DNA from: a phage
DNA length: 49,223 bases
Sequence record: NC_103567.1
Reading direction: 5' to 3' (one strand)
The position numbers and the translations under genes are program-made. The notes under the pieces are model-generated. The model worked only from the letters and a program-made list of their open reading frames with translations, was not told where the DNA came from and searched no databases. Of this stretch, positions 5,124 to 48,724 are shown piece by piece (within the stretch, counting starts at the first letter, position 1; every line of letters begins with the position of its first letter).

Positions 5124-5187
5124 TTGCGCAAGGCCATTTGTTATAGTGGCCTTATTCAAGAGAAGCAACCAATCAGAGGAATAAACG

Positions 5188-7027: not shown

Positions 7028-7338
7028 TTTACATTCACTCTTACGGAGTTGGCAAGTTTGGCAGCAAGCAGATCAGAAACATTCACGACACGTTAGAAGA
7101 AGCGCAAGCACAGCAACGCGTTTTAGGTGGAGTTGTTCAGGCTTTTGAATCGGTTGAGAATTTAGGCATTAACGAGCAGATAAAGGAAATCGTTGTTGAT
7201 GAAGTAGCATGTATCATTGACGATTTCAGCACGAAAGCGCCAGGTTCGGCGCGTGAGCTTGAGCCAGGTTCTATCGAGTGGGATTTATACAAGGTTGGAG
7301 TGCTAAACCGCCTCCGCGAGCTACTCGCAGAAATTTAA
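7024..7338 (+). CDS. hypothetical acidic protein
   Basis: 104-aa ORF with start overlapping previous stop. Confidence 0.6.
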   Translation: MIYIHSYGVGKFGSKQIRNIHDTLEEAQAQQRVLGGVVQAFESVENLGINEQIKEIVVDEVACIIDDFSTKAPGSARELEPGSIEWDLYKVGVLNRLRELLAEI

Positions 7339-7359
7339 CGAATTTGCATCGATTTTAAT

Positions 7360-7393
7360 CGCCTCCAGACGAATTCTAAGAGGCGAATTTTTT
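7360..7393 (+). terminator. rho-independent terminator
   Basis: CGCCTC...GAGGCG hairpin followed by a T-run. Confidence 0.6.
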
Positions 7394-7407
7394 AGGAAGG
7401 TGATTCT

Positions 7408-7536
7408 ATGCCTGAATACATAAAACCGTCGCAGTGGTGCGCACATAAGCAAGAAGAAGCATTAGAGCGCGGCGACACTGACACAGCATTGCACTACTTT
7501 GAAATGTTTCAACTTTGGAAATCAAGAGGACTTTAA
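7408..7536 (+). CDS. hypothetical small protein (about 42 aa)
   Basis: AAGGTGA RBS and ATG after the terminator; hand translation MPEYIKPSQWCAHKQEEALERGDTDTALHYFEMFQLWKSRGL; coordinates approximate. Confidence 0.35.
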   Translation: MPEYIKPSQWCAHKQEEALERGDTDTALHYFEMFQLWKSRGL

Positions 7537-7537
7537 A

Positions 7538-7765
7538 ATGTTTGGACTTAATGAGGCTGAATACAACATTGTTAAACGCGCTGCAAAAGAGTGCATGAAG
7601 GATCTGAAAGTTGAAGTTACGAGCGGCAACAAATACGATCATATTGCGGCTGGCATTATCACCAAACATCACACGCCAATTTCTACCTTAATCACTCGCA
7701 CAAAGTTTGTATGGCTTGCTGGTTATATAGCTGGTCGATGGGGTAAGCCTGGCGAGTATGAATAA
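7538..7765 (+). CDS. hypothetical protein
   Basis: ORF track 7499-7765; internal ATG 7538 with AAGAGGA RBS. Confidence 0.5.
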   Translation: MFGLNEAEYNIVKRAAKECMKDLKVEVTSGNKYDHIAAGIITKHHTPISTLITRTKFVWLAGYIAGRWGKPGEYE

Positions 7766-7787
7766 TAAGCACTTGAATCAATGAAGG

Positions 7788-7816
7788 TTGACGGCGTGTT
7801 GTCTGATTGGTAGATT
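7788..7816 (+). promoter_or_regulatory. sigma70-like promoter (TTGACG-N17-TAGATT) flanked by inverted repeat ACGGCG / CGCCGT
   Basis: Consensus-like -35 with 17-bp spacer; followed by a ~130-nt GC-rich leader before the ATG near 7948. Confidence 0.5.
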
Positions 7817-7947
7817 AAACGCCGTGAACATAAGAGGCTCAATAGAGCAAAGCGCGGCGCGTTAGCCGTAAAACCTAATCGGATGGGATTGCATAGCAAA
7901 CGACCATCGCGGGAACCGTAACCCGCAACCATTCAGGAGAATTCACG

Positions 7948-8109
7948 ATGCAAAACAAAGAAATCGCAAAGGTAACTATCATCGTCGAGCGTGACGGAAA
8001 GAAAACGCGATACAAGAAGCGATTTAAACAAGGTGAGGCGATGTTAGGCCGGATCGGTGATTTCATGGTGAAATTGCAAGAGGATAAACCGGATGAAATT
8101 CAAGGTTAA
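7948..8109 (+). CDS. hypothetical small basic protein (about 53 aa)
   Basis: CAGGAGAA RBS then ATG; hand-translated; not in ORF track because under 60 aa. Confidence 0.45.
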   Translation: MQNKEIAKVTIIVERDGKKTRYKKRFKQGEAMLGRIGDFMVKLQEDKPDEIQG

Positions 8110-8275
8110 GCTAACTATCCGGCGCATGGGTCGCAATTGCGGATCATGTAAACAAGATTTCGAATGCGAGGTTGAAGCGCTAAACACTGTTGATGCGGTT
8201 AAATGCGCTAAAGTTCTTTCAGGTGCTAACCCTGAAACACACCAATTTTCAATCAATTATGTGAGGGCTATATAA
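8093..8275 (+). CDS. hypothetical Cys-containing small protein
   Basis: 60-aa ORF overlapping the previous gene end. Confidence 0.45.
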   Translation: MKFKVKLTIRRMGRNCGSCKQDFECEVEALNTVDAVKCAKVLSGANPETHQFSINYVRAI

Positions 8276-8505
8276 TGCTGATGTTCATTGCTGGTTTTGG
8301 TTTTTGTGCGATTATCTGTTTCTTTCTCTATCTTTGTTTTTCGTGGGGTGTGCAGCGTTGCGTAAAAGACAACGAATTAGTGATCGCCATTTACGAAAAC
8401 AAAGCTGATAAATGGAAGATTACTAAAAACTTTGAAAAGATTGCTGATGAAATTGCATTCCGTCGCAAGTTTGGCAAGCCTGGAAGCATCAAGTATATTG
8501 ATTGA
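8275..8505 (+). CDS. small membrane protein
   Basis: 76-aa ORF with N-terminal hydrophobic helix MLMFIAGFGFCAIICFFLYLCF. Confidence 0.55.
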   Translation: MLMFIAGFGFCAIICFFLYLCFSWGVQRCVKDNELVIAIYENKADKWKITKNFEKIADEIAFRRKFGKPGSIKYID

Positions 8506-8522
8506 TTCAACGAAAAAAAGAC

Positions 8523-8547
8523 AACCCGCCTTGCGCGGGTTTTTTTG
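8523..8547 (+). terminator. rho-independent terminator followed by a TATAAT-containing late-promoter-like sequence
   Basis: CCCGCCTTGCGCGGG hairpin plus T7 run; TATAAT about 20 bp downstream. Confidence 0.65.
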
Positions 8548-8593
8548 TGTCTGCAATTTAGCTATAATCACGCCTCAACAGGAGGATTTTATT

Positions 8594-9118
8594 ATGGCTA
8601 AAAAAACAGAAGCGCCAGCGGCGGAAAGTCTAAACTTTAAAAAGTTATGGAATAAGCGATATTCCGATCTGGTAGGTATTGAGATTGATAAACGCGCAAC
8701 GCTAACGCCGGAACAAGTCATGAACCTGATTGTTCAGTATTTTGAGTGGGCGGAGCTAAACGCCATTAAAGCAGGTGAGACTACATCCTTTCAGGGTCGA
8801 GTGTATCAGGATACGATTCACAAGCCGCGTATTTTTACATGGGAAGGGTTAAAGCTGTTTTGCGGTTTTTCAGGCACAGCACTAGCAAAGTGGAAACTTA
8901 AACCAGGCTATGATGTTGTTATTGAGTTTGCGGAATCGGTAATCAAAGAACAAAAATACCAGTTAGCTGCAAACGGAATGATTAACAGCACCATGATCGC
9001 AAAAGAGCTTGGCATTGATAAAGGCGACACGTTCAATATTAGCGCCAATGCTGAAACGGAAGTTAACACGGAAGAAGCAATGAAAAACGCCGTCGCAAGC
9101 GTTCTAAGTAAAATTTAA
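8594..9118 (+). CDS. terS: terminase small subunit (putative)
   Basis: About 174-aa ORF immediately upstream of the large terminase; CAGGAGGA RBS; position-based call. Confidence 0.6.
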   Translation: MAKKTEAPAAESLNFKKLWNKRYSDLVGIEIDKRATLTPEQVMNLIVQYFEWAELNAIKAGETTSFQGRVYQDTIHKPRIFTWEGLKLFCGFSGTALAKWKLKPGYDVVIEFAESVIKEQKYQLAANGMINSTMIAKELGIDKGDTFNISANAETEVNTEEAMKNAVASVLSKI

Positions 9119-9129
9119 GGGTGAATGCT

Positions 9130-10701
9130 ATGTTGATATGGGAAGATTTAAGCAAGTTAGAAAAGCTGGCTATTAAAGAATTGAGTACACACGATTTTGA
9201 TACTTTCGTTAAAATCTGGTTCCCGATCCAGCAAGGGGAAAAATGGATTCCTAACTGGCATCACCTTTATATCGCAAGAGCGATTGATGAAATTATTGAA
9301 GGTACGCGGAAAGATACGATCTTTAATGTAACTCCAGGCTCAGGTAAGACGGAATTACTTTCTATCCATTTCCCTCCGTATTCTTATTTAAAACTTAATA
9401 AGGTGCGGAACCTAAATATTTCATTTGCCGATACGCTTGTTAAACGAAACAGTAAGCGTGTGCGTGATCTGGTTAATTCGCGAGAATGGCAAGAGCTTTT
9501 CCCTGCAAAAACTGGTACAAGCAAAGATGATGAATTTCAGGTTTTAAATGACGCTGGCAAAGTTCGACTTGAAATGATTAGTAAATCAATGGGCGGTCAA
9601 ATTACTGGTAGCCGTGGCGGTTATATCACTCCTGGTATTTATTCCGGTTGCGTTACGCTTGACGATCCAGAAAAGCCCGATGATATGTTTTCGAAGGTGA
9701 AGCGTGAGCGCGGTCAGATGATAGCGAAGAACACCATTCGATCACGTCGCGCACATTCAGAAACGCCAATTATCGTTATCCAGCAGCGTTTACATGCGCA
9801 GGATATGACATGGTTTCTGATGAATGGCGGAATGGGTATTGAATTTGATCAGATATCAATTCCGGCTATGGTTACAGAGGAGTACGGGAAATCACTTCCT
9901 GATTGGTTGCAGCCGCACTTTGAAAAGGATGTGCTTTCGTCTGAATACATCGTTATTGACGGCGTGAAGTATTATTCTTTTTGGCCTAGCAAGGAAAGCA
10001 TTCATGACTTGAAAGCGCTACGCGATGCGGATTTGTACACGTTCCTTTCTCAGTATCAGCAAGATCCAATTGCTCTTGGAGGTAACGCAATTAACGTTGG
10101 ATGGTTCCAGTATTACGGAACCGGAGAAAAATCAACTATGCCAAAACCGGATCGCTTTGATTATACGTTTATTACAGCAGATACCGCTCAGAAAGAAGGT
10201 GAGCTAAACGACTACAGCGTTTTATGTTATTGGGGCATGTTCAAAGGCCGTATATATTTTATTGACGGTGTGCGCGGAAAATGGGAAGCGCCAATGTTAG
10301 AAACGCAGTTTAAAGCGTTTGTTAAACAGTGCTGGAACCGTAACAAAGAATGCGGAAACTTGCGTAAAATTTACGTGGAAGATAAAGCGAGCGGTACAGG
10401 TTTGATCCAGAATTGCCGCAAAGCATTTCCGATAGAAATTACGCCAGTGCAACGCGATAAAGACAAAGTAACGCGCTGCATGGACGCTCAGCCAGTGATC
10501 AAGAATGGTTATGTTGTATTGCCTGAATCGCATCACATGCTTGCTGAATTTCTGGCAGAGGCGGCGGCATTCACTTATGATGATAGCCATCCTCATGATG
10601 ATATTATGGATAACCTTTTTGATGCGGTTAATATTGAGCTTAACCTTGCTGATAATGCGGTTGATAGAATGAAGCGTTTAGCTGGATTAGCGAAGCGTTA
10701 A
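9130..10701 (+). CDS. terL: terminase large subunit
   Basis: About 523 aa with Walker A-like PGSGKT and the size and position expected for a TerL ATPase-nuclease. Confidence 0.85.
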   Translation: MLIWEDLSKLEKLAIKELSTHDFDTFVKIWFPIQQGEKWIPNWHHLYIARAIDEIIEGTRKDTIFNVTPGSGKTELLSIHFPPYSYLKLNKVRNLNISFADTLVKRNSKRVRDLVNSREWQELFPAKTGTSKDDEFQVLNDAGKVRLEMISKSMGGQITGSRGGYITPGIYSGCVTLDDPEKPDDMFSKVKRERGQMIAKNTIRSRRAHSETPIIVIQQRLHAQDMTWFLMNGGMGIEFDQISIPAMVTEEYGKSLPDWLQPHFEKDVLSSEYIVIDGVKYYSFWPSKESIHDLKALRDADLYTFLSQYQQDPIALGGNAINVGWFQYYGTGEKSTMPKPDRFDYTFITADTAQKEGELNDYSVLCYWGMFKGRIYFIDGVRGKWEAPMLETQFKAFVKQCWNRNKECGNLRKIYVEDKASGTGLIQNCRKAFPIEITPVQRDKDKVTRCMDAQPVIKNGYVVLPESHHMLAEFLAEAAAFTYDDSHPHDDIMDNLFDAVNIELNLADNAVDRMKRLAGLAKR

Positions 10702-12050: not shown

Positions 12051-12718
12051 TGTTTCCCGATATGACAGAGAGCGACGTTGAAAAGGCGCTTAATGATCTG
12101 GCGGTTGATATCACTGAAAACAATGCTGATGTAGAGGCGGCAATTGCCGCCTTTATGTTGCTGGTTTACGGGTTCGCCGTTAGTGCATACAAATACCACA
12201 CTCGCCAATTTATCAGAATGGCAAAGCAAACAGGAGGTGCAAATAATCGATCCGTTATCCTTCTGATTGGTGGCGTTTACGGAAATATGAATGAACGTTG
12301 GTTCAATTCAAAATACATAACCTGGCGATCACTTATTGAGGCATCAGTAAGTAAATTTGCGTATAATGTGCTTGATGATTGGGAAGTACAACAGCGTTTA
12401 AATGAGTTACGCGAGCAAGCAGAAACAAGAGCGCAGATCCGAAAGCGCCTAAGAAAATATAAGGCGTGGGCTAAAAATAGGGCGTCTGGTTTTGTTGGTT
12501 CGTGGTATTCCGTGTTAATGTATCAACGCGTGGTTGATACCGGAGTTACCCATTATATTTGGCGCACTCAGGAAGATAACAGGGTTAGACCTGAACACGC
12601 TAAATTGGATATGAAACGGATCTCATTGGCAATAAAGCACATATTCCCAGGGCAGGAATATAATTGTCGCTGTTGGGCGCAACCGGATTGGGAAACAGAG
12701 CAAGAGGTATATTTATGA
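12047..12718 (+). CDS. head morphogenesis protein (SPP1 gp7-like minor head protein)
   Basis: 223-aa ORF overlapping the portal stop; canonical position after portal. Confidence 0.65.
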   Translation: MMFPDMTESDVEKALNDLAVDITENNADVEAAIAAFMLLVYGFAVSAYKYHTRQFIRMAKQTGGANNRSVILLIGGVYGNMNERWFNSKYITWRSLIEASVSKFAYNVLDDWEVQQRLNELREQAETRAQIRKRLRKYKAWAKNRASGFVGSWYSVLMYQRVVDTGVTHYIWRTQEDNRVRPEHAKLDMKRISLAIKHIFPGQEYNCRCWAQPDWETEQEVYL

Positions 12719-14809: not shown

Positions 14810-14858
14810 CGTGCTAACACAAAAAACACTTGAACGTTTAACAAAAAATGCTATATTA

Positions 14859-18912: not shown

Positions 18913-19229
18913 AACGGGCGGTTTATCTGTATTATCAGAAACCGCCGACAGATGCAGAATTGCAAGCCGTAGGATTAACCCGCGCAGACTATGAAGGAGA
19001 AGATCCGCCAGAGGTCATATTTGATGAAAGTATGATGCAATCATGGGATATATTTTGCGCGATGGGTACACAGTGGCGTAGTGCTGGCGCTGGTGCTTAC
19101 GGTTTTGATTATAATGTTTTGCCTATGTTATTCAGAATCTATAAAATAGAAGATGAAGAAATGGCCTTAAATGACTTGCGCATCATGGAACAAAAAGCAC
19201 TGGAAATGATGCAAGCAAATAACAAATAA
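18592..19229 (+). CDS. tail assembly chaperone -1 frameshift product (lambda GT-like)
   Basis: -1 frame is open from about 18837 through 19229; slippery heptamer at 18903-18909 sits 1 nt before the zero-frame stop. Confidence 0.55.
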
Positions 19230-19252
19230 AGCGCCTACGGGCGCTTTTTTTT
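19229..19252 (+). terminator. rho-independent terminator / attenuator before the tape measure gene
   Basis: AAGCGCCTACGGGCGCTT plus T8. Confidence 0.6.
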
Positions 19253-19267
19253 ATGAGGGTAAAATAT

Positions 19268-22177
19268 ATGGCTGAACAATTTGCAGGTTTAACACTTGGC
19301 GTGAACGTCGAGCAGTTAAACAAAGCTGTTAAGTCGTTACAGGACTTTAAAAAAGCCAACGACGAAGCAAAGAAAGGCGTTGAGAGCTTTGTTAACGAGG
19401 AAGAAGTTGCAAAGCAAAAGGCTAAACAGTTAGCCGATGAATTAGCGAAACAGAGCCGTGAATTTAAGAGAATTCAGGATACAGTTGATCCGACAGCGGC
19501 AAAAATGCGCAAGCTGTCACAGGCAGCAAGTGATCTTGATAAGCTATGGCAAAAAGGGATTGTACCTGATGAAACATTCTTCCAATTAGGGAGCATGTTG
19601 GAAACTCAGATCAGTAAATTGGAGCGCAACAAAAAGGCTCTTACGGAAGAAGGCCGCGCAGCGTTGGAAGAATCACGCGCCAAAGAGAAAGCAGCGGCAG
19701 CAGGAAAGAGCTTCCTTGCGGATCTAGAATCACAGGCGGCGGCTCTTGGAAAAACCAAATCTGAATTACTGGAAATGAAAGCCGCGCAACTTGGCGTAAG
19801 TGCTCAGGCCGCGCCATTCATTGCACAGCTTAAAGCGCAAGAGCGCCAGATGAAATTAACCGGAATTAGCGCGGGGCAATATAACCAGGCAATGCGACAA
19901 CTTCCGGCTCAGATCACTGACGTTGTAACGTCGCTGGCTTCCGGCATGCCTGTTTGGTTGGTTGCAATCCAGCAGGGTGGGCAGATTAAAGATTCTTTCG
20001 GCGGCGTTGGTAATACGTTTAAAGTGCTGTTGTCGTTTCTTAATCCGGTAAACGTTGGCCTTGCCGCATTAGCCGTTTCAATGGGTGCTCTTGTTAAGGC
20101 TGGTTATGATGCGTATAAGTCGCAACGTGACTTGCAAGAGGCGTTGGTGCTGACTGGTGGCTATGCTGGCACAAGCGGCGCACAGTTCGATAAGCTGGCG
20201 CAGGACATTAATAACAGCACTGATGCGACGATAGGAAACATCCGATCCATCGCAACAGAGCTTGCAAAATCCGGCAAATTCACGATTGATCAGATTAAAT
20301 CGATCACAAAGACTACCGCTCAGTGGTCAACGGTAACGGGTGAATCAAGCGACAAGATAACCGATTACTTTAATAAGATTGCTGGCGATCCGGTTAAAGG
20401 TCTTGCAGAGCTAAACGAGCAATTCAACTTTTTAAGCGAAGGGCAGTTAACTTATATTGCAGACCTGGAGAAAACGAAAGGAAAAACGGAAGCAGTGACG
20501 GCGGCGACAAAGTTATTTGCTGATGTTATGGATAAGAGATTAGCTAAACTGGCAGACTCCGCAACGCCATTAGAAAAGATGTGGACGAACATTAAAAAAT
20601 GGGCGTCAGATGCTTGGGGATGGGTTGGAGATCACACGCTGGCGGCGCTTAACCTGATTATCGACGTTGTAGCCGGAACTGTTGAGCAGGTTAGATACTT
20701 GCTTAATCAGGGTGATATTCTCATTGGTGAATTTATTGTGTCGGCAACTAAGACGATGCAAAAAATCCCAGGTCTTGATAATGTTGGCAATTCTGTAATT
20801 TCGCAACAACAGAAGATCATTAATAACGCCAAAGAGAACAACAAGGAGCTATTAAAATCAATTGCAGAACGTAACGAGCGAGTCAAAAAAGGCGAGCAGG
20901 GTTACATTGACATGATGAAAAATCGTGCGGCGGTTGAACAGCAATATGCTACTAAAACAAAGGAGAATATCAGGAAGGAAGCCGAGGAATTAGCCAAACG
21001 CGATAAAAAGCAAAAGGCTGAAAAAGTTAAGGTATCGGCTGGCGATAAGCTGGAAGAACAATATCAGCGTGATATCCTGGCGTTAGAAACTCAATTAAGA
21101 GTTTTGAAAGAGCACAAGACGATCACAGATACCATAAGCCAGCAACGTAAATCTTTATGGGCTGAACAAGCTAAAATTCAGATTCTGCAAGAGGCCTCAA
21201 CAAAACGGCAACTTACTGATGAAGAAAAAAGCATTTTAGCAAACAAAGATAAGATCCTGGCGATGGCTGAACAAAAAGCTATTTTAGGAGATCAGATTGT
21301 TGCACAAACGCGACTTAATCAGTTGCAAGATAGCTCAATCAAGTTTATCCAGCAGCAGAAAGCAGCAACAGAAGCACTAGCCAAAACCAGAGGGTTAAGC
21401 GAGCGTGAAGCAGCAAGAGCGGCTGAACGTGCAAAGGTTGAGGCTGATTATCTTGCCAAAGGAGGTAAGGAAGGAGATCCGCAACTCACCGCCATGATGG
21501 ATGAATTAGACAACCGCTATAAAGAGGAAGATGCTAAACGTGCTGATTGGTTATCTGGTGCAAAACATGCCTTTGCGGAGTACGGCGAAGAAGCAATGAA
21601 CATGTATGATAATATCGGCAACATTGCGAGCCAGGCGTTAAACGGCCTATCTCAACAAATGGCTGATTTCTTGACTACTGGACAAGCAAACTTCAAAGAC
21701 TTTGCAAAATCGATCATTAGCCTTATTGTTCAGATGATCACAAAGATGGTTATCTTCAATAGCATTTCCGGCATGATGGGCGGCTCAACCTGGACACTTG
21801 GAAGCCTTTTAAGCGGTGCTGGTTTTGCTGGCGGCGGTTATACTGGCGACGGTGGCAAATATGATCCGGCTGGCGTTGTTCATAAGGGTGAGTTTGTTTT
21901 CACCAAAGAGGCAACGCAAAGAATCGGAGCTAAAAACCTGTATCGCATGATGCGAGGTTATGCAAACGGCGGTCAAGTAGGAAGCGTGACAACTGGCGGC
22001 GCTGGCATCAATCGCGGTGCATCGCAATTTGCATTTGGTGATATCAACGTTAACATTGACAACGGTCAAGATCCAAAAGGGATGGAAACTGGTATCAAGA
22101 TGATTTTCACTGAAATGATTCAACGGTCATGCTCGCAAGGTGGCGAGGTTTATAATTTTGTTCATGGGAGGGCTTAA
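19268..22177 (+). CDS. tail tape measure protein
   Basis: About 969 aa, long Ala/Lys/Glu/Gln-rich predicted coiled coil, C-terminal Gly-rich segment. Confidence 0.85.
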   Translation: MAEQFAGLTLGVNVEQLNKAVKSLQDFKKANDEAKKGVESFVNEEEVAKQKAKQLADELAKQSREFKRIQDTVDPTAAKMRKLSQAASDLDKLWQKGIVPDETFFQLGSMLETQISKLERNKKALTEEGRAALEESRAKEKAAAAGKSFLADLESQAAALGKTKSELLEMKAAQLGVSAQAAPFIAQLKAQERQMKLTGISAGQYNQAMRQLPAQITDVVTSLASGMPVWLVAIQQGGQIKDSFGGVGNTFKVLLSFLNPVNVGLAALAVSMGALVKAGYDAYKSQRDLQEALVLTGGYAGTSGAQFDKLAQDINNSTDATIGNIRSIATELAKSGKFTIDQIKSITKTTAQWSTVTGESSDKITDYFNKIAGDPVKGLAELNEQFNFLSEGQLTYIADLEKTKGKTEAVTAATKLFADVMDKRLAKLADSATPLEKMWTNIKKWASDAWGWVGDHTLAALNLIIDVVAGTVEQVRYLLNQGDILIGEFIVSATKTMQKIPGLDNVGNSVISQQQKIINNAKENNKELLKSIAERNERVKKGEQGYIDMMKNRAAVEQQYATKTKENIRKEAEELAKRDKKQKAEKVKVSAGDKLEEQYQRDILALETQLRVLKEHKTITDTISQQRKSLWAEQAKIQILQEASTKRQLTDEEKSILANKDKILAMAEQKAILGDQIVAQTRLNQLQDSSIKFIQQQKAATEALAKTRGLSEREAARAAERAKVEADYLAKGGKEGDPQLTAMMDELDNRYKEEDAKRADWLSGAKHAFAEYGEEAMNMYDNIGNIASQALNGLSQQMADFLTTGQANFKDFAKSIISLIVQMITKMVIFNSISGMMGGSTWTLGSLLSGAGFAGGGYTGDGGKYDPAGVVHKGEFVFTKEATQRIGAKNLYRMMRGYANGGQVGSVTTGGAGINRGASQFAFGDINVNIDNGQDPKGMETGIKMIFTEMIQRSCSQGGEVYNFVHGRA

Positions 22178-35823: not shown

Positions 35824-37797
35824 ATGATTCCTAACATTGAAAAGCAGATTGCAGATCTGGGAGAGGAAAGGATTAAGGCAATCCAGAAGCGTTTCACGGT
35901 TGGTGAGATTGTCCCGTATGAATACCAATGCGTTGCTTACGCTGAAATTGCAAAGCGCTTGAGTAAGTATGTTGATCCGTTTTTCGTTAAAGCGGCGGTG
36001 TCGGCAGGTAAAACAATCATCTTTGCTATGGTTGCGGCTCAGTGCAGGAAAATGGGATTGAAAGCGTTATTTCTGGCGCGTCAATCTGAAATTGTGGATC
36101 AGGATTCAAAAGAGATTAGCGCCTTTGGTGTTCCGAATTCCGTTTATTGCGCTGGCCTGAATACCAAAAGCGCTTATTTCCCGATTGTTGTAGGATCGGA
36201 AGGTACTGTAATTGGCGGATTGAATAAGGCGTTAGGTGATTACGTCCCACAGGTTTTAGGTATAGATGAATGTCATCAAGTCAACTGGAATGATATTGTT
36301 GAAGCCGAGGAAAACGGCGAAAGCATAGAGCAAATGATGACACCGAAAGGTGAACCAGTTGAAGGCAATCCGTTGCTGATTGGTTCAGGCCGCGCACAAT
36401 ACACCATTATCATTGCAGAAATGCGCCGCCGTTGTCTTGAGACTTACGGTCATCAGTTGCGTATATTTGGAATGACAGGATCGGAATATCGCGGAATTGA
36501 GCCGATACTTGTCGAAGATAAAAGAATTCCTGGGTTTTGGCGTGAGCAGATCACAAACATTGATACTGATTACCTGGTAAAATTTGGTTCAGTTGTTCCC
36601 ACTTATTTTGGCAATGTTGGTGATTTGGGTTACGACTTATCAGAATTTACGCCAGTGAATGAATTTGGCGTTGCTGATTATGACCAGAAGCAATTAAAGG
36701 CCATGAGTGACAAGATTCACCAATCAGGAACCATGACGCAGAAAATAATGCAGATGGTTCACGAGGTGATGAAAAACCGCTTGTGCGCTCTTGTTACTTG
36801 CGCTGACGAAAGGCACTGCAAAGAGGCAGCGGCGGCGCTTCCTCCTGGCACGAAATATCACATTATTACCGGAAAAACTGGAGAGAAACAGAGGCGCTTA
36901 TGGCTTGAGGATGCTTATGAAGGCAGGGTGAAATATATTTTTCAGGTTCAGGCGCTAACAACTGGCGTGAACGTGCCGCCGTGGGATACTTCTGTTATTT
37001 TGCGTAAGATCGGAAGTCTCACGCTATTAACTCAGCTTTTGGGGCGTGGTATGCGTCAATTAAAAACATACCATAAAGAAGTATTGGGGATGCACAAAAC
37101 GGATCACCTTGTTTTGGATTTTTCAGGCACGATGTTTGAAATGGGTAATTTGTATTTCGATCCGATGTTAGAGCAAGCGCAATTCCAGTTACGTAAATCA
37201 CAGGACAAAGATCCGAAATATTGCCCGATTTGCGGTACAGAAAATTCATTCTATGCTCGCCGTTGCATTAATGAGGATGAAAACGGAAATCGTTGTGAAC
37301 ATTTCTGGACGTTCCAGGAATGTGAGGATCAGATTGATGACCGCACAAAGAAAGTTATTGTAAAAGGTTGCGGCGCAAAAAATGACGTTGCGGCGCGTGT
37401 ATGCCGTTGCTGTAATGTTCAGTTACGCGATCCAAATGATAACTTATCCGGCAAGATGTACCGTAAAAACGATTGGTGCGACGTGTTAGATTTTAATGTG
37501 ACGCTGACAAAAAACCAGGCTGGCGTAATATTCTGCTACACGTTACGTGATAGTGGCGGCGTAGAATTCAGGGCATACGAAAAATATTTCCCTGAATCAG
37601 AACACAAGATATGTAAAACGCTTTGGACAAAGGCGGTTAGAACACATGTTATAGATCGCCAAGCCGCAAACTTTATGATCGCTTGCCGCAATGCAATTAA
37701 GATCATGAGTTATGCGGGGCAAATATTGCCGCCAAAACGTGTTACCCATCGCAAGAACACAAAGAAAGAAGATTTGATCGCACAGAAGGAGTTTTAA
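35824..37797 (+). CDS. superfamily-2 ATP-dependent helicase with C-terminal zinc-ribbon motifs
   Basis: 657 aa; Walker A VSAGKT, DExH-like LGIDECHQV; C-terminal CPICG...C..C and CGAKN...CRCC pairs. Confidence 0.8.
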   Translation: MIPNIEKQIADLGEERIKAIQKRFTVGEIVPYEYQCVAYAEIAKRLSKYVDPFFVKAAVSAGKTIIFAMVAAQCRKMGLKALFLARQSEIVDQDSKEISAFGVPNSVYCAGLNTKSAYFPIVVGSEGTVIGGLNKALGDYVPQVLGIDECHQVNWNDIVEAEENGESIEQMMTPKGEPVEGNPLLIGSGRAQYTIIIAEMRRRCLETYGHQLRIFGMTGSEYRGIEPILVEDKRIPGFWREQITNIDTDYLVKFGSVVPTYFGNVGDLGYDLSEFTPVNEFGVADYDQKQLKAMSDKIHQSGTMTQKIMQMVHEVMKNRLCALVTCADERHCKEAAAALPPGTKYHIITGKTGEKQRRLWLEDAYEGRVKYIFQVQALTTGVNVPPWDTSVILRKIGSLTLLTQLLGRGMRQLKTYHKEVLGMHKTDHLVLDFSGTMFEMGNLYFDPMLEQAQFQLRKSQDKDPKYCPICGTENSFYARRCINEDENGNRCEHFWTFQECEDQIDDRTKKVIVKGCGAKNDVAARVCRCCNVQLRDPNDNLSGKMYRKNDWCDVLDFNVTLTKNQAGVIFCYTLRDSGGVEFRAYEKYFPESEHKICKTLWTKAVRTHVIDRQAANFMIACRNAIKIMSYAGQILPPKRVTHRKNTKKEDLIAQKEF

Positions 37798-48670: not shown

Positions 48671-48724
48671 CGTTAATCTCCTGATTGGTTTCGATGGGGC
48701 AACTATATCAAGATACCCCGATCC

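Follow-up and report, generated by a model that had tools for sequence, protein, structure and literature searches.

A probable new family of structured leader RNAs at the head of the late operon of T1-like phages

Why does a T1-like phage keep a long untranslated leader in front of the small genes that precede its terminase genes? The window, by which we mean the whole 49,223-nucleotide (nt) stretch of record NC_103567.1, represents the complete genome of a siphophage of the T1-like group (Drexlerviridae, Tempevirinae, Tlsvirus). A gap of 182 nt (7766-7947) separates its + strand genes 7538-7765 and 7948-8109. The original prediction placed a sigma70-like promoter in this gap, followed by a GC-rich leader with several palindromes (7817-7947), and suggested that the leader could be a cis-regulatory RNA. 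Comparison with relatives indicates that the leader very probably represents a new family of functional structured RNAs, so far encountered only in T1-like phages (Drexlerviridae).

Conserved structure of the leader

The gap was better conserved than the genes that flank it. Identity in the gap versus the flanking genes was 95.4% versus 89.1% for phage TLS, 94.5% versus 87.6% for YSP2 and 97.8% versus 89.8% for phSE-5. We aligned 20 leaders from Tlsvirus, Changchunvirus, Henuseptimavirus, Jhansiroadvirus, Hicfunavirus and Tunavirus (T1 included). The leader fold consists of a single-stranded 5' word, a hairpin (H1), a junction, a second hairpin (H2), a variable third hairpin (H3) and a fourth hairpin (H4), followed by the ribosome-binding site of the next gene. 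In the alignment, the 5' word was nearly invariant, the junction read AACGCG, the loop of H2 read GCGAUA and H4 always carried CCGUAA, while the sequences of H1 and H3 varied.

A covariance model built from this alignment (R1) scored 120 bits at 7821-7939 in the window and 77 bits at 7621-7745 in T1. The element occurred as a single copy per genome, and R1 detected no second copy in the window or in T1. In total, R1 yielded 77 matches, representing 63 distinct sequences, in 98 mainly Drexlerviridae sources. Wider scans added no members from elsewhere. Two pattern scans of IMG/VR gave mostly chance matches, of which R1 scored only T1-like contigs of about 50 kilobases (kb); all of the 120 matches listed in a metagenome scan were due to chance, with no true member among them; and a scan of a genome collection that made use of a neighbouring protein returned one weak, unrelated match only. 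Hence, these IMG/VR, metagenome and genome-collection scans produced no credible member beyond the Drexlerviridae.

Covariation was calculated from 43 distinct sequences. H1 was paired in 97% of cases, with compensatory changes at all four of its pairs, and H2 in 100%, with compensatory changes at four of its five pairs, such that eight of the nine pairs of these two hairpins had changed on both sides. Double changes occurred in 10 pairs, compared to 5.7 +/- 1.1 in shuffles, and none of the 500 shuffles reached 10. When the pairing partners were slid by 1-3 columns as a control, pairing fell to 23-46%. Conserved structure and covariation in relatives, the lack of which would have counted against the original prediction, were thus clearly found. 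Moreover, G-U pairs outnumbered A-C pairs by 13 to 2 in H1 and H2, and the folded strand is therefore the + strand.

These changes also bear on the possibility that the element acts as DNA, for instance as a pac site, a replication origin, an operator or a set of single-strand DNA hairpins. It lies near the terminase genes, is GC-rich, contains inverted repeats, and follows a promoter whose spacer holds the word CTGATTGGT that recurs throughout the genome. Yet helices that are kept by compensatory changes, with G-U tolerated on the + strand only, are unlike double-strand protein sites, and the predicted transcription start is exactly where conservation sets in. The T1 terminal repeat, with pac at its beginning, covers positions 1-2800, and the element lies at 7621-7745. 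The pac site of TLS has been mapped by restriction digestion, without a link to the leader region (PMC11447400). A role at the level of DNA is therefore highly improbable.

The register of H4 differs among subfamilies and is misaligned by R1, so this hairpin was tallied by direct search instead. It occurred in 17 distinct stem and loop versions, all of which enclosed C(C/U)(G/A)UA(A/C). Its stems included GCGGG/CCCGC, GUGGG/CCCAC, GAGGG/CCCUC, GCCGC/GCGGC and GCCGU/ACGGC, as well as several stems of 9 base pairs (bp). At the position of H3, each subfamily had a hairpin of unrelated sequence (e.g., GCUAC/GUAGC, GCUGUU/AACAGC, UUGC/GCAA or GGGC/GCCC), and H3 was missing in the Henuseptimavirus type. 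An extra outer helix around H3 and H4 (GUCGC/GCGUGAC or GGUGGAUGC/GCAUCACC) was present in the type of Vc1, HCF1 and Motto.

Distant homologues that were folded singly gave the same four-hairpin minimum-energy fold, with z-scores of -1.0 to -2.4 on the + strand. In the window, the folding z-score was -2.74 for 7817-7960 and -1.87 for 7824-7939, which is modest for a single sequence, and the - strand was unremarkable (z = -0.49). Because such single-sequence signals are mild, the case for a functional RNA rests on the comparison with relatives. The GC content of the leader was 53-54%, against 35-49% in neighbouring 100-nt segments, in agreement with the earlier observation that the leader is GC-richer than its surroundings.

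In the window, the + strand elements of the leader follow each other closely. The conserved single-stranded 5' word CGUGAACAUAAGAG (7823-7836), with its nearly invariant alignment columns, opens the predicted transcript. H1 (7837-7848), assigned by covariation, pairs GCUC (7837-7840) with GAGC (7845-7848) around a variable loop, here AAUA; its stem reads UGUG/CACA, GCCC/GGGU, GCGC/GCGC or CGGC/GCCG in relatives. The conserved junction AAAGC (7849-7853) corresponds to AACGC in relatives and, together with the first G of H2, to AACGCG. In H2 (7854-7869), GCGGC (7854-7858) pairs with GCCGU (7865-7869) around the loop GCGUUA, which is GCGAUA in most relatives, and the stem variants include CGGC/GCCG, UGGC/GCCA, CAGC/GCUG, CCAG/CUGG and CAUC/GAUG. 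The following linker (7870-7881) ends in the conserved word (A)AUCGG, the last G of which (7882) opens H3. This third hairpin (7882-7908), variable in length and sequence, consists of GAUGG (7882-7886) paired with CCAUC (7904-7908) and UUGC (7889-7892) paired with GCAA (7896-7899). H4 (7909-7926), identified by the direct stem and loop search in relatives, pairs GCGGG (7909-7913) with CCCGC (7922-7926) around the conserved loop AACCGUAA. The four hairpins are contained in about 115 nt. The remainder (7927-7947) contains the conserved tail AACCAUUCA, the Shine-Dalgarno sequence AGGAG (7935-7939), which was unpaired in centroid folds, and the spacer to the AUG at 7948.

The original prediction had named two palindromes in the leader. 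The first, CGCGGGAACCGTAACCCGC, is a true inverted repeat and forms H4. The second, GCGCGGCGCG, is not a palindrome, as its reverse complement is CGCGCCGCGC; the real helix at this place is H2, in which GCGGC and GCCGU enclose GCGUUA. Furthermore, the word CCGU(A/G)A is present twice in the leader, at the 5' end and in the loop of H4. The bases next to the two copies co-vary in parallel, with CGU-AGAC/AGAC-CCGUA in the T1 type and CGU-GAAC/GAAC-CGUA in Tlsvirus, and are not complements of each other. This hints that both sites may be recognised by one binder.

Promoter, transcript start and rejected identities

The promoter at 7788-7816 is of the sigma70 type, with a -35 hexamer TTGACG (7788-7793), a 17-nt spacer, a -10 hexamer TAGATT (7811-7816) and a TG in front of the latter. 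This TG, an extended -10, is part of the spacer word CTGATTGGT (7803-7811), the last T of which overlaps the -10 hexamer. By itself the match was not beyond chance, since the promoter scan found 4 sites versus 5.5 expected in shuffles. Among the relatives, TTGAC was present in all 58 distinct upstream sequences and the spacer CTGAnnGG(G)T was retained in nearly all of them. Their -10 hexamers were variants of TAnnnT (TAACAT, TAGGAT, TAGTAT, TATCAT), located at the same distance from the 5' word.

The word CGU(A/G)(A/G)AC started 7 nt after TAnnnT in every subfamily representative that was counted, a distance read off by eye in the upstream sequences of these representatives only. The bases in between varied freely while the distance was fixed, and conservation thus begins at the predicted transcription start, 7823/7824. 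Such an onset speaks for a real promoter and for an element that would function as the 5' end of a transcript. From the predicted start to the AUG at 7948 the leader measures about 124 nt. Hence, the claim of a promoter followed by an untranslated leader, before the small genes ahead of terminase, stood up well, with a promoter geometry that was invariant in 58 distinct relatives.

An RNA that is anchored at the 5' end of its transcript might be a constitutive stabiliser or translation aid, in which the hairpins guard the messenger RNA (mRNA) against RNase E or 5'-end-dependent decay and a GAGG word holds the ribosome, without any switching. A GAGG resembling a Shine-Dalgarno sequence is indeed present in the 5' word of most members, and the minimal form of the element in Webervirus amounts to the 5' word plus hairpins. 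However, a conserved unpaired 5' end of 13 nt is the opposite of protection, as an unpaired 5' end does not protect against 5'-end-dependent decay by RNase E, and simple stabilisers need neither conserved loops and junctions nor four helices. We consider this explanation unlikely.

Searches for a known identity gave no candidate. Rfam 15 had no match at the gathering score in the whole window and only two chance matches to small nucleolar RNAs at 7600-8200 (expectation value E > 5). Riboswitches and other cis-regulatory families were absent from the leader region at E values up to 10, so that the covariance-model search proposed with the original prediction returned no known cis-regulatory RNA family. 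ARAGORN detected no transfer RNA (tRNA) or transfer-messenger RNA genes in the window. In full-text literature searches we found no description of the leader RNA and no transcriptomes of T1-like phages. The 2024 re-annotation of TLS lists three sigma70 promoters, and neither the leader promoter nor any RNA at this position is among them (PMC11447400).

The original prediction had suggested an attenuator, an RNA thermometer or a protein-binding leader. An attenuator based on an intrinsic terminator was rejected for the window, because 7817-7947 contains no hairpin with a U-run and the first terminator follows at 8523. A competing antiterminator pairing was not found either, including in the relatives with terminator-like ends (the Henuseptimavirus type and KOX1). 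A thermometer of the ROSE or fourU kind was likewise rejected, because in the conserved fold the Shine-Dalgarno sequence and the AUG are unpaired and a conserved masking helix is lacking. What held is that the leader is a conserved structured RNA, and a protein-binding or other cis-regulatory leader is still a live option. 

Several other pairings and words were dismissed on comparison. A long-range helix in the minimum-energy fold, between GUGAA at the 5' end and UUCAC at the AUG, is lost in relatives with a different downstream gene or 5' word. Pairing of the linker (CCUAAU with AUUCAGG; CUUCC in T1), which would mask the Shine-Dalgarno sequence, occurs in some members only and is absent in TLS, Stevie and P-K7R. 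Words resembling boxA and the RfaH ops element were chance resemblances in single sequences that are not conserved; the alignment contains no conserved boxA word similar to CGCUCUUA, and GCUCAAUA in H1 of the window is not kept in relatives.

Protein coding was rejected as well. The leader has no + strand open reading frame (ORF) of at least 30 amino acids and no conserved start codon, and the leader lengths of the relatives (112, 119, 122 and 124 nt) differ by numbers that are not multiples of three. A 69-amino-acid ORF on the - strand (7723-7932) is not conserved, nor are the N-terminal extensions annotated in Sazh-like records. In several GenBank records, for example that of Sazh (L001, 2070-2279), the first downstream ORF is made to begin within the leader, with an ATG that belongs to the 3' arm of H3. 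The equivalent of this ATG at 7900 is ACG in the window and the codon is not conserved; these starts are probably annotation artefacts. In kind, the element is a promoter-proximal regulatory leader RNA, the sequence and architecture of which are unrelated to any described family.

The word in the promoter spacer has a wider distribution. The 9-mer CTGAYYGGT occurs at 24 sites in the window, against 0.65 expected, and at 25 sites in T1 (L153); its sites in the window include 7803-7811, 9899-9907, 12263-12271, 21543-21551, 36376-36384 and 48681-48689. With 17 exact copies, CTGATTGGT is the commonest 9-mer of the genome. Copies of CTGAYYGGT lie within genes, in all three frames and on both strands, with flanks that lack a consensus, and one copy forms the spacer of the leader promoter. 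The word looks like a signal at the level of DNA, and its core is presumably the same as the eukaryotic Y-box or inverted CCAAT word.

Late-operon terminators and possible functions of the leader

Ten strong intrinsic terminators on the + strand, at 8523, 10713, 14330, 15892, 16216, 18525, 19228, 22528, 24668 and 28531 (range 8523-28558), punctuate the late operon, in which sigma70-like promoters were not enriched over shuffles. The annotation of T1 has an equal terminator layout, and the re-annotation of TLS gives 12 + strand terminators and one predicted sigma70 promoter within 8.7-30.6 kb (PMC11447400). At five of the terminators in the window the next start codon (10755, 14369, 15938, 16256 and 19268) lies 17-23 nt past the stem and the U-run enters the ribosome-binding site. 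This distance leaves no room for a promoter, and therefore read-through is obligatory for these five genes. According to the positions in the T1 annotation, they include the portal gene (10755) and the tape-measure gene (19268, an ORF of 969 amino acids).

The first terminator behind the leader (8523-8549, + strand), found by the terminator scan just before terS, has an annotated counterpart at this place in Sazh, T1 and TLS. The scan revealed no terminator that would separate the promoter from the genes upstream of it, and therefore transcripts from the left arm should also reach 8523. Only transcripts born at 7823/7824 would carry the element at their 5' end.

The gene that follows the leader differs among relatives. 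It encodes a basic protein of 53 amino acids in the window, gp25 in TLS and Stevie, and a CxxC protein in P-K7R, HCF1 and L025. The 53-amino-acid gene is not always adjacent to the leader and appears to be missing from the block in some phages. In a T1-like contig from IMG/VR (L030, 1907-2554), six tRNA genes (Arg, Ser, Ser, Asn, Trp, Met) are located between a diverged copy of the leader and a small CxxC gene. H4 of this copy is identical to that of the Vc1 type, and its R1 match is weak (E = 0.68). Since the next gene differs among relatives, with tRNA genes in one of them, the element is tied to the promoter and transcript start and not to the translation of one gene.

We rank antitermination first among the possible functions, because the element goes with the promoter and 5' end and not with a gene, because read-through is obligatory downstream and because no polymerase or sigma factor is encoded (PMC11447400). 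Our tentative proposal is that the leader makes RNA polymerase resistant to terminators in cis and promotes read-through into the late operon. It would act co-transcriptionally on the very RNA polymerase that makes it, either on its own, in the manner of the put RNAs of phage HK022, or with the help of a small protein from the phage or the host, as in nut/N and conAn. Transcripts from the leader promoter would then pass the terminator at 8523 and the further strong late terminators, whereas those that enter from upstream genes would end at 8523. A more specific idea is that the whole packaging and virion operon is controlled by a processive antiterminator made of RNA and unrelated to put, which by itself or with a single small partner protein would let E. 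coli RNA polymerase ignore the roughly ten strong terminators directly before essential late genes. This idea is somewhat more doubtful still.

The closest parallel is with the put RNAs of HK022 (putL and putR), which are multi-helix nascent RNAs close to the promoter, as the leader would be, and belong to a coliphage that likewise relies on host RNA polymerase in unmodified form (PMC9378689). As putL sits shortly downstream of its promoter, so does the leader, with a predicted start. Both precede a long operon containing terminators, and in both the structure and a few specific bases are conserved. The put RNAs bind the zinc-binding domain of the beta-prime subunit and allow read-through of terminators without protein factors. 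They occur in two copies per genome and the leader in one, and no conserved -10-like pause element was seen in the leader. Moreover, the put phage is lambdoid, whereas the leader belongs to a virulent T1-like phage, for which antitermination is a proposal. Phage HK639 has put-like RNAs related to those of HK022.

A second parallel is the late promoter PR' of lambda with its antiterminator Q (PMC7547250). Like the leader promoter, PR' is a single late promoter that immediately precedes lysis, packaging and virion genes. The spacer of the leader promoter has a conserved word where lambda has the Q-binding element. Lambda PR' produces a short 6S-type transcript ending at tR', and leaders of 100-200 nt, with a terminator-like end in some relatives, would resemble it. 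However, Q acts via DNA and a sigma-dependent pause and not via the structure of a leader RNA, whereas here the RNA helices are under selection. Unlike PR'/Q, the window leader contains no terminator, the first one being 700 nt downstream, and a -10-like TAnnnT in the initially transcribed bases is not conserved among the relatives. A Q-like protein had no match among the nine neighbouring proteins, to which this search was confined.

The nut site of lambda (boxA and boxB) with N, and conAn of Gram-positive conjugative elements (PMC8191782), share with the leader a short hairpin with a conserved loop, a small basic protein encoded next to it and a long terminator-rich operon downstream. A nut site has boxA upstream of a boxB hairpin with a GNRA-like pentaloop, and N carries an arginine-rich motif. 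The H2 loops GCGAUA, GCGGA and CGAU might be GNRA-like. Unlike nut and conAn, the leader has no conserved boxA, its basic protein is not always adjacent and its architecture is larger. Neither N nor ConAn1 homologues were recognised among the neighbouring proteins tested.

Several observations weigh against antitermination by the leader. In architecture, put is about 70 nt long, and its two long stem-loops, which bear specific bulges, are arranged as a V (PMC9378689), compared to about 115 nt and four hairpins in the leader. Homology with put was rejected: an unfiltered R1 search of the entire HK022 genome reached at best 8.4 bits (E = 0.72), at a place other than the put sites. The late operon may not need the leader: protein ratios could be set by leaky terminators with no antiterminator involved, an antiterminator protein similar in kind to Q or gp39 may do without a role for the leader RNA, and there is a possible internal promoter at 14830-14857, ahead of the expected position of the capsid gene. 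The variation among subfamilies adds to these points. In Tlsvirus and T1 the leader ends in H4 followed by AACCAUUCA. In the Henuseptimavirus type, H4 lies within a 9-bp GC stem followed by U4-U8, a terminator-like end that fits regulated attenuation or the 3' end of a small RNA at least as well. The form in Webervirus is reduced to the 5' word and H1, followed by a single GC hairpin with AUUUAUU, and H2-H4 are not kept in it, so that either the Webervirus core is sufficient or H2-H4 have another role.

These 3' ends are relevant to a sensor-type cis-regulator, in which the junction and loops AACGCG, GCGAUA and CCGUAA would bind a metabolite or a protein and thereby change termination in the leader or use of the ribosome-binding site. 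As in riboswitches and protein-dependent attenuators, the leader combines a conserved core in loops and junctions with peripheral stems that vary in sequence and length, a site in the 5' leader and a terminator-like 3' element in two subfamilies, namely the U4-U8 of the Henuseptimavirus type and the hairpin plus AUUUAUU of Webervirus, which the terminator scan flagged in KOX1. The two copies of CCGU(A/G)A with their parallel variation would suit two sites for one binder, and the basic patch GKKTRYKKRFK in the 53-amino-acid product of the next gene (7948-8109) also favours this reading. Unlike such attenuators, however, the leader matches no riboswitch or cis-regulatory family in Rfam at E up to 10, offers no mutually exclusive alternative pairing and has no terminator in its Tlsvirus and T1 forms; in the window it is without a U-run and its Shine-Dalgarno sequence is unpaired. 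In addition, the conserved H4 loop marks this hairpin as part of a functional core and not as a free expression platform. The downstream genes, all of unknown function, give no metabolic clue, and the 53-amino-acid gene is not a constant neighbour. A sensor is conceivable, although we have considerable doubts about it.

The same ends could also release a stable RNA that acts in trans, freed by termination in the Henuseptimavirus type or by cleavage in the conserved A(A/C)CAUUCA tail. Such an RNA might bind a host factor or defence protein or serve as its decoy. The compact and highly structured form of the leader, its near-consensus promoter, its conservation across phages of different Enterobacteriaceae, its independence of the identity of the next gene, and the hairpin plus U-run at its end in some subfamilies are consistent with such an RNA. 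Against it, no terminator is present at the leader end in the window or in T1, and a ribosome-binding site follows directly on the 3' side and is conserved along with the leader. We therefore regard a trans-acting RNA as improbable.

If the leader does act as an antiterminator, it would be the first RNA-based processive antiterminator outside lambdoid phages, and it would explain how a phage without a polymerase or sigma factor of its own can have a late operon studded with terminators. T1 is a classic coliphage and its family comprises many hundreds of sequenced therapeutic candidates, the transcription programme of which is barely known; the 2024 re-annotation of TLS left unexplained how late modules flanked by terminators come to be expressed. 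With a conserved RNA that is anchored at the predicted start, just before the first late terminator, there is a concrete handle on late expression. Whatever its mechanism, it would give annotation pipelines a new RNA family, and phage engineering a candidate part, either an insulated strong promoter with its leader or, possibly, a read-through device.

Neighbouring genes and further observations

The region 7300-8700 (1.4 kb) has 99.8% identity with Salmonella phage vB_SeTS_UALMA_PCST1, and the numbering of the window equals that of TLS in the leader region. Upstream of the gap, gene 7538-7765 is a small, conserved, T1p59-like gene (PHROG 303). Three small + strand genes follow the leader, at 7948-8109, 8093-8275 and 8275-8505; they correspond to PHROG 6666, 2919 and 5976 and DUF7299, all of unknown function. 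The same applied to all nine neighbouring proteins that were checked against protein families. The terminase genes terS (8594-9118) and terL (9121-10701), also on the + strand, come after the terminator at 8523-8549. Between this terminator and terS lies a perfect TATAAT (8563-8568), 14 nt past the U-run and 26 nt before the start of terS, without a recognisable -35 in front of it. Possibly the terminase genes have here a weak promoter that consists of a -10 only.

R1 also gave a weak match at 19455-19480 in the window and at 19218-19243 in T1. It combines GCCGUGAAUUUAAGAG, which resembles the 5' word, with AAUUCAGGA, and falls within the long ORF that occupies the tape-measure position. Chance or coding conservation accounts for this match.

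The neighbouring marker gene was found in 835 phage records. Some records carry host labels outside the Enterobacteriaceae, namely OR786094 (Streptococcus phage MBBL140), MG065667 and MG065681 (Campylobacter phages), NC_054898 (Vibrio phage Vc1) and ON843697 (Pseudomonas phage Motto). Some of these records are nevertheless close relatives of enterobacterial T1-like phages, for example MBBL140 with 88.8% identity over 1.4 kb, and the host labels may be wrong.

A 21-nt direct repeat, aaATAGCACnnnTTGnTAAAA, has been described for TLS, where its function is unknown. Words of this repeat, such as TTGCTAAAA and TTTTGTTAA, are among the commonest 9-mers of the window genome, with contexts near 5176, 48681 and 49078.

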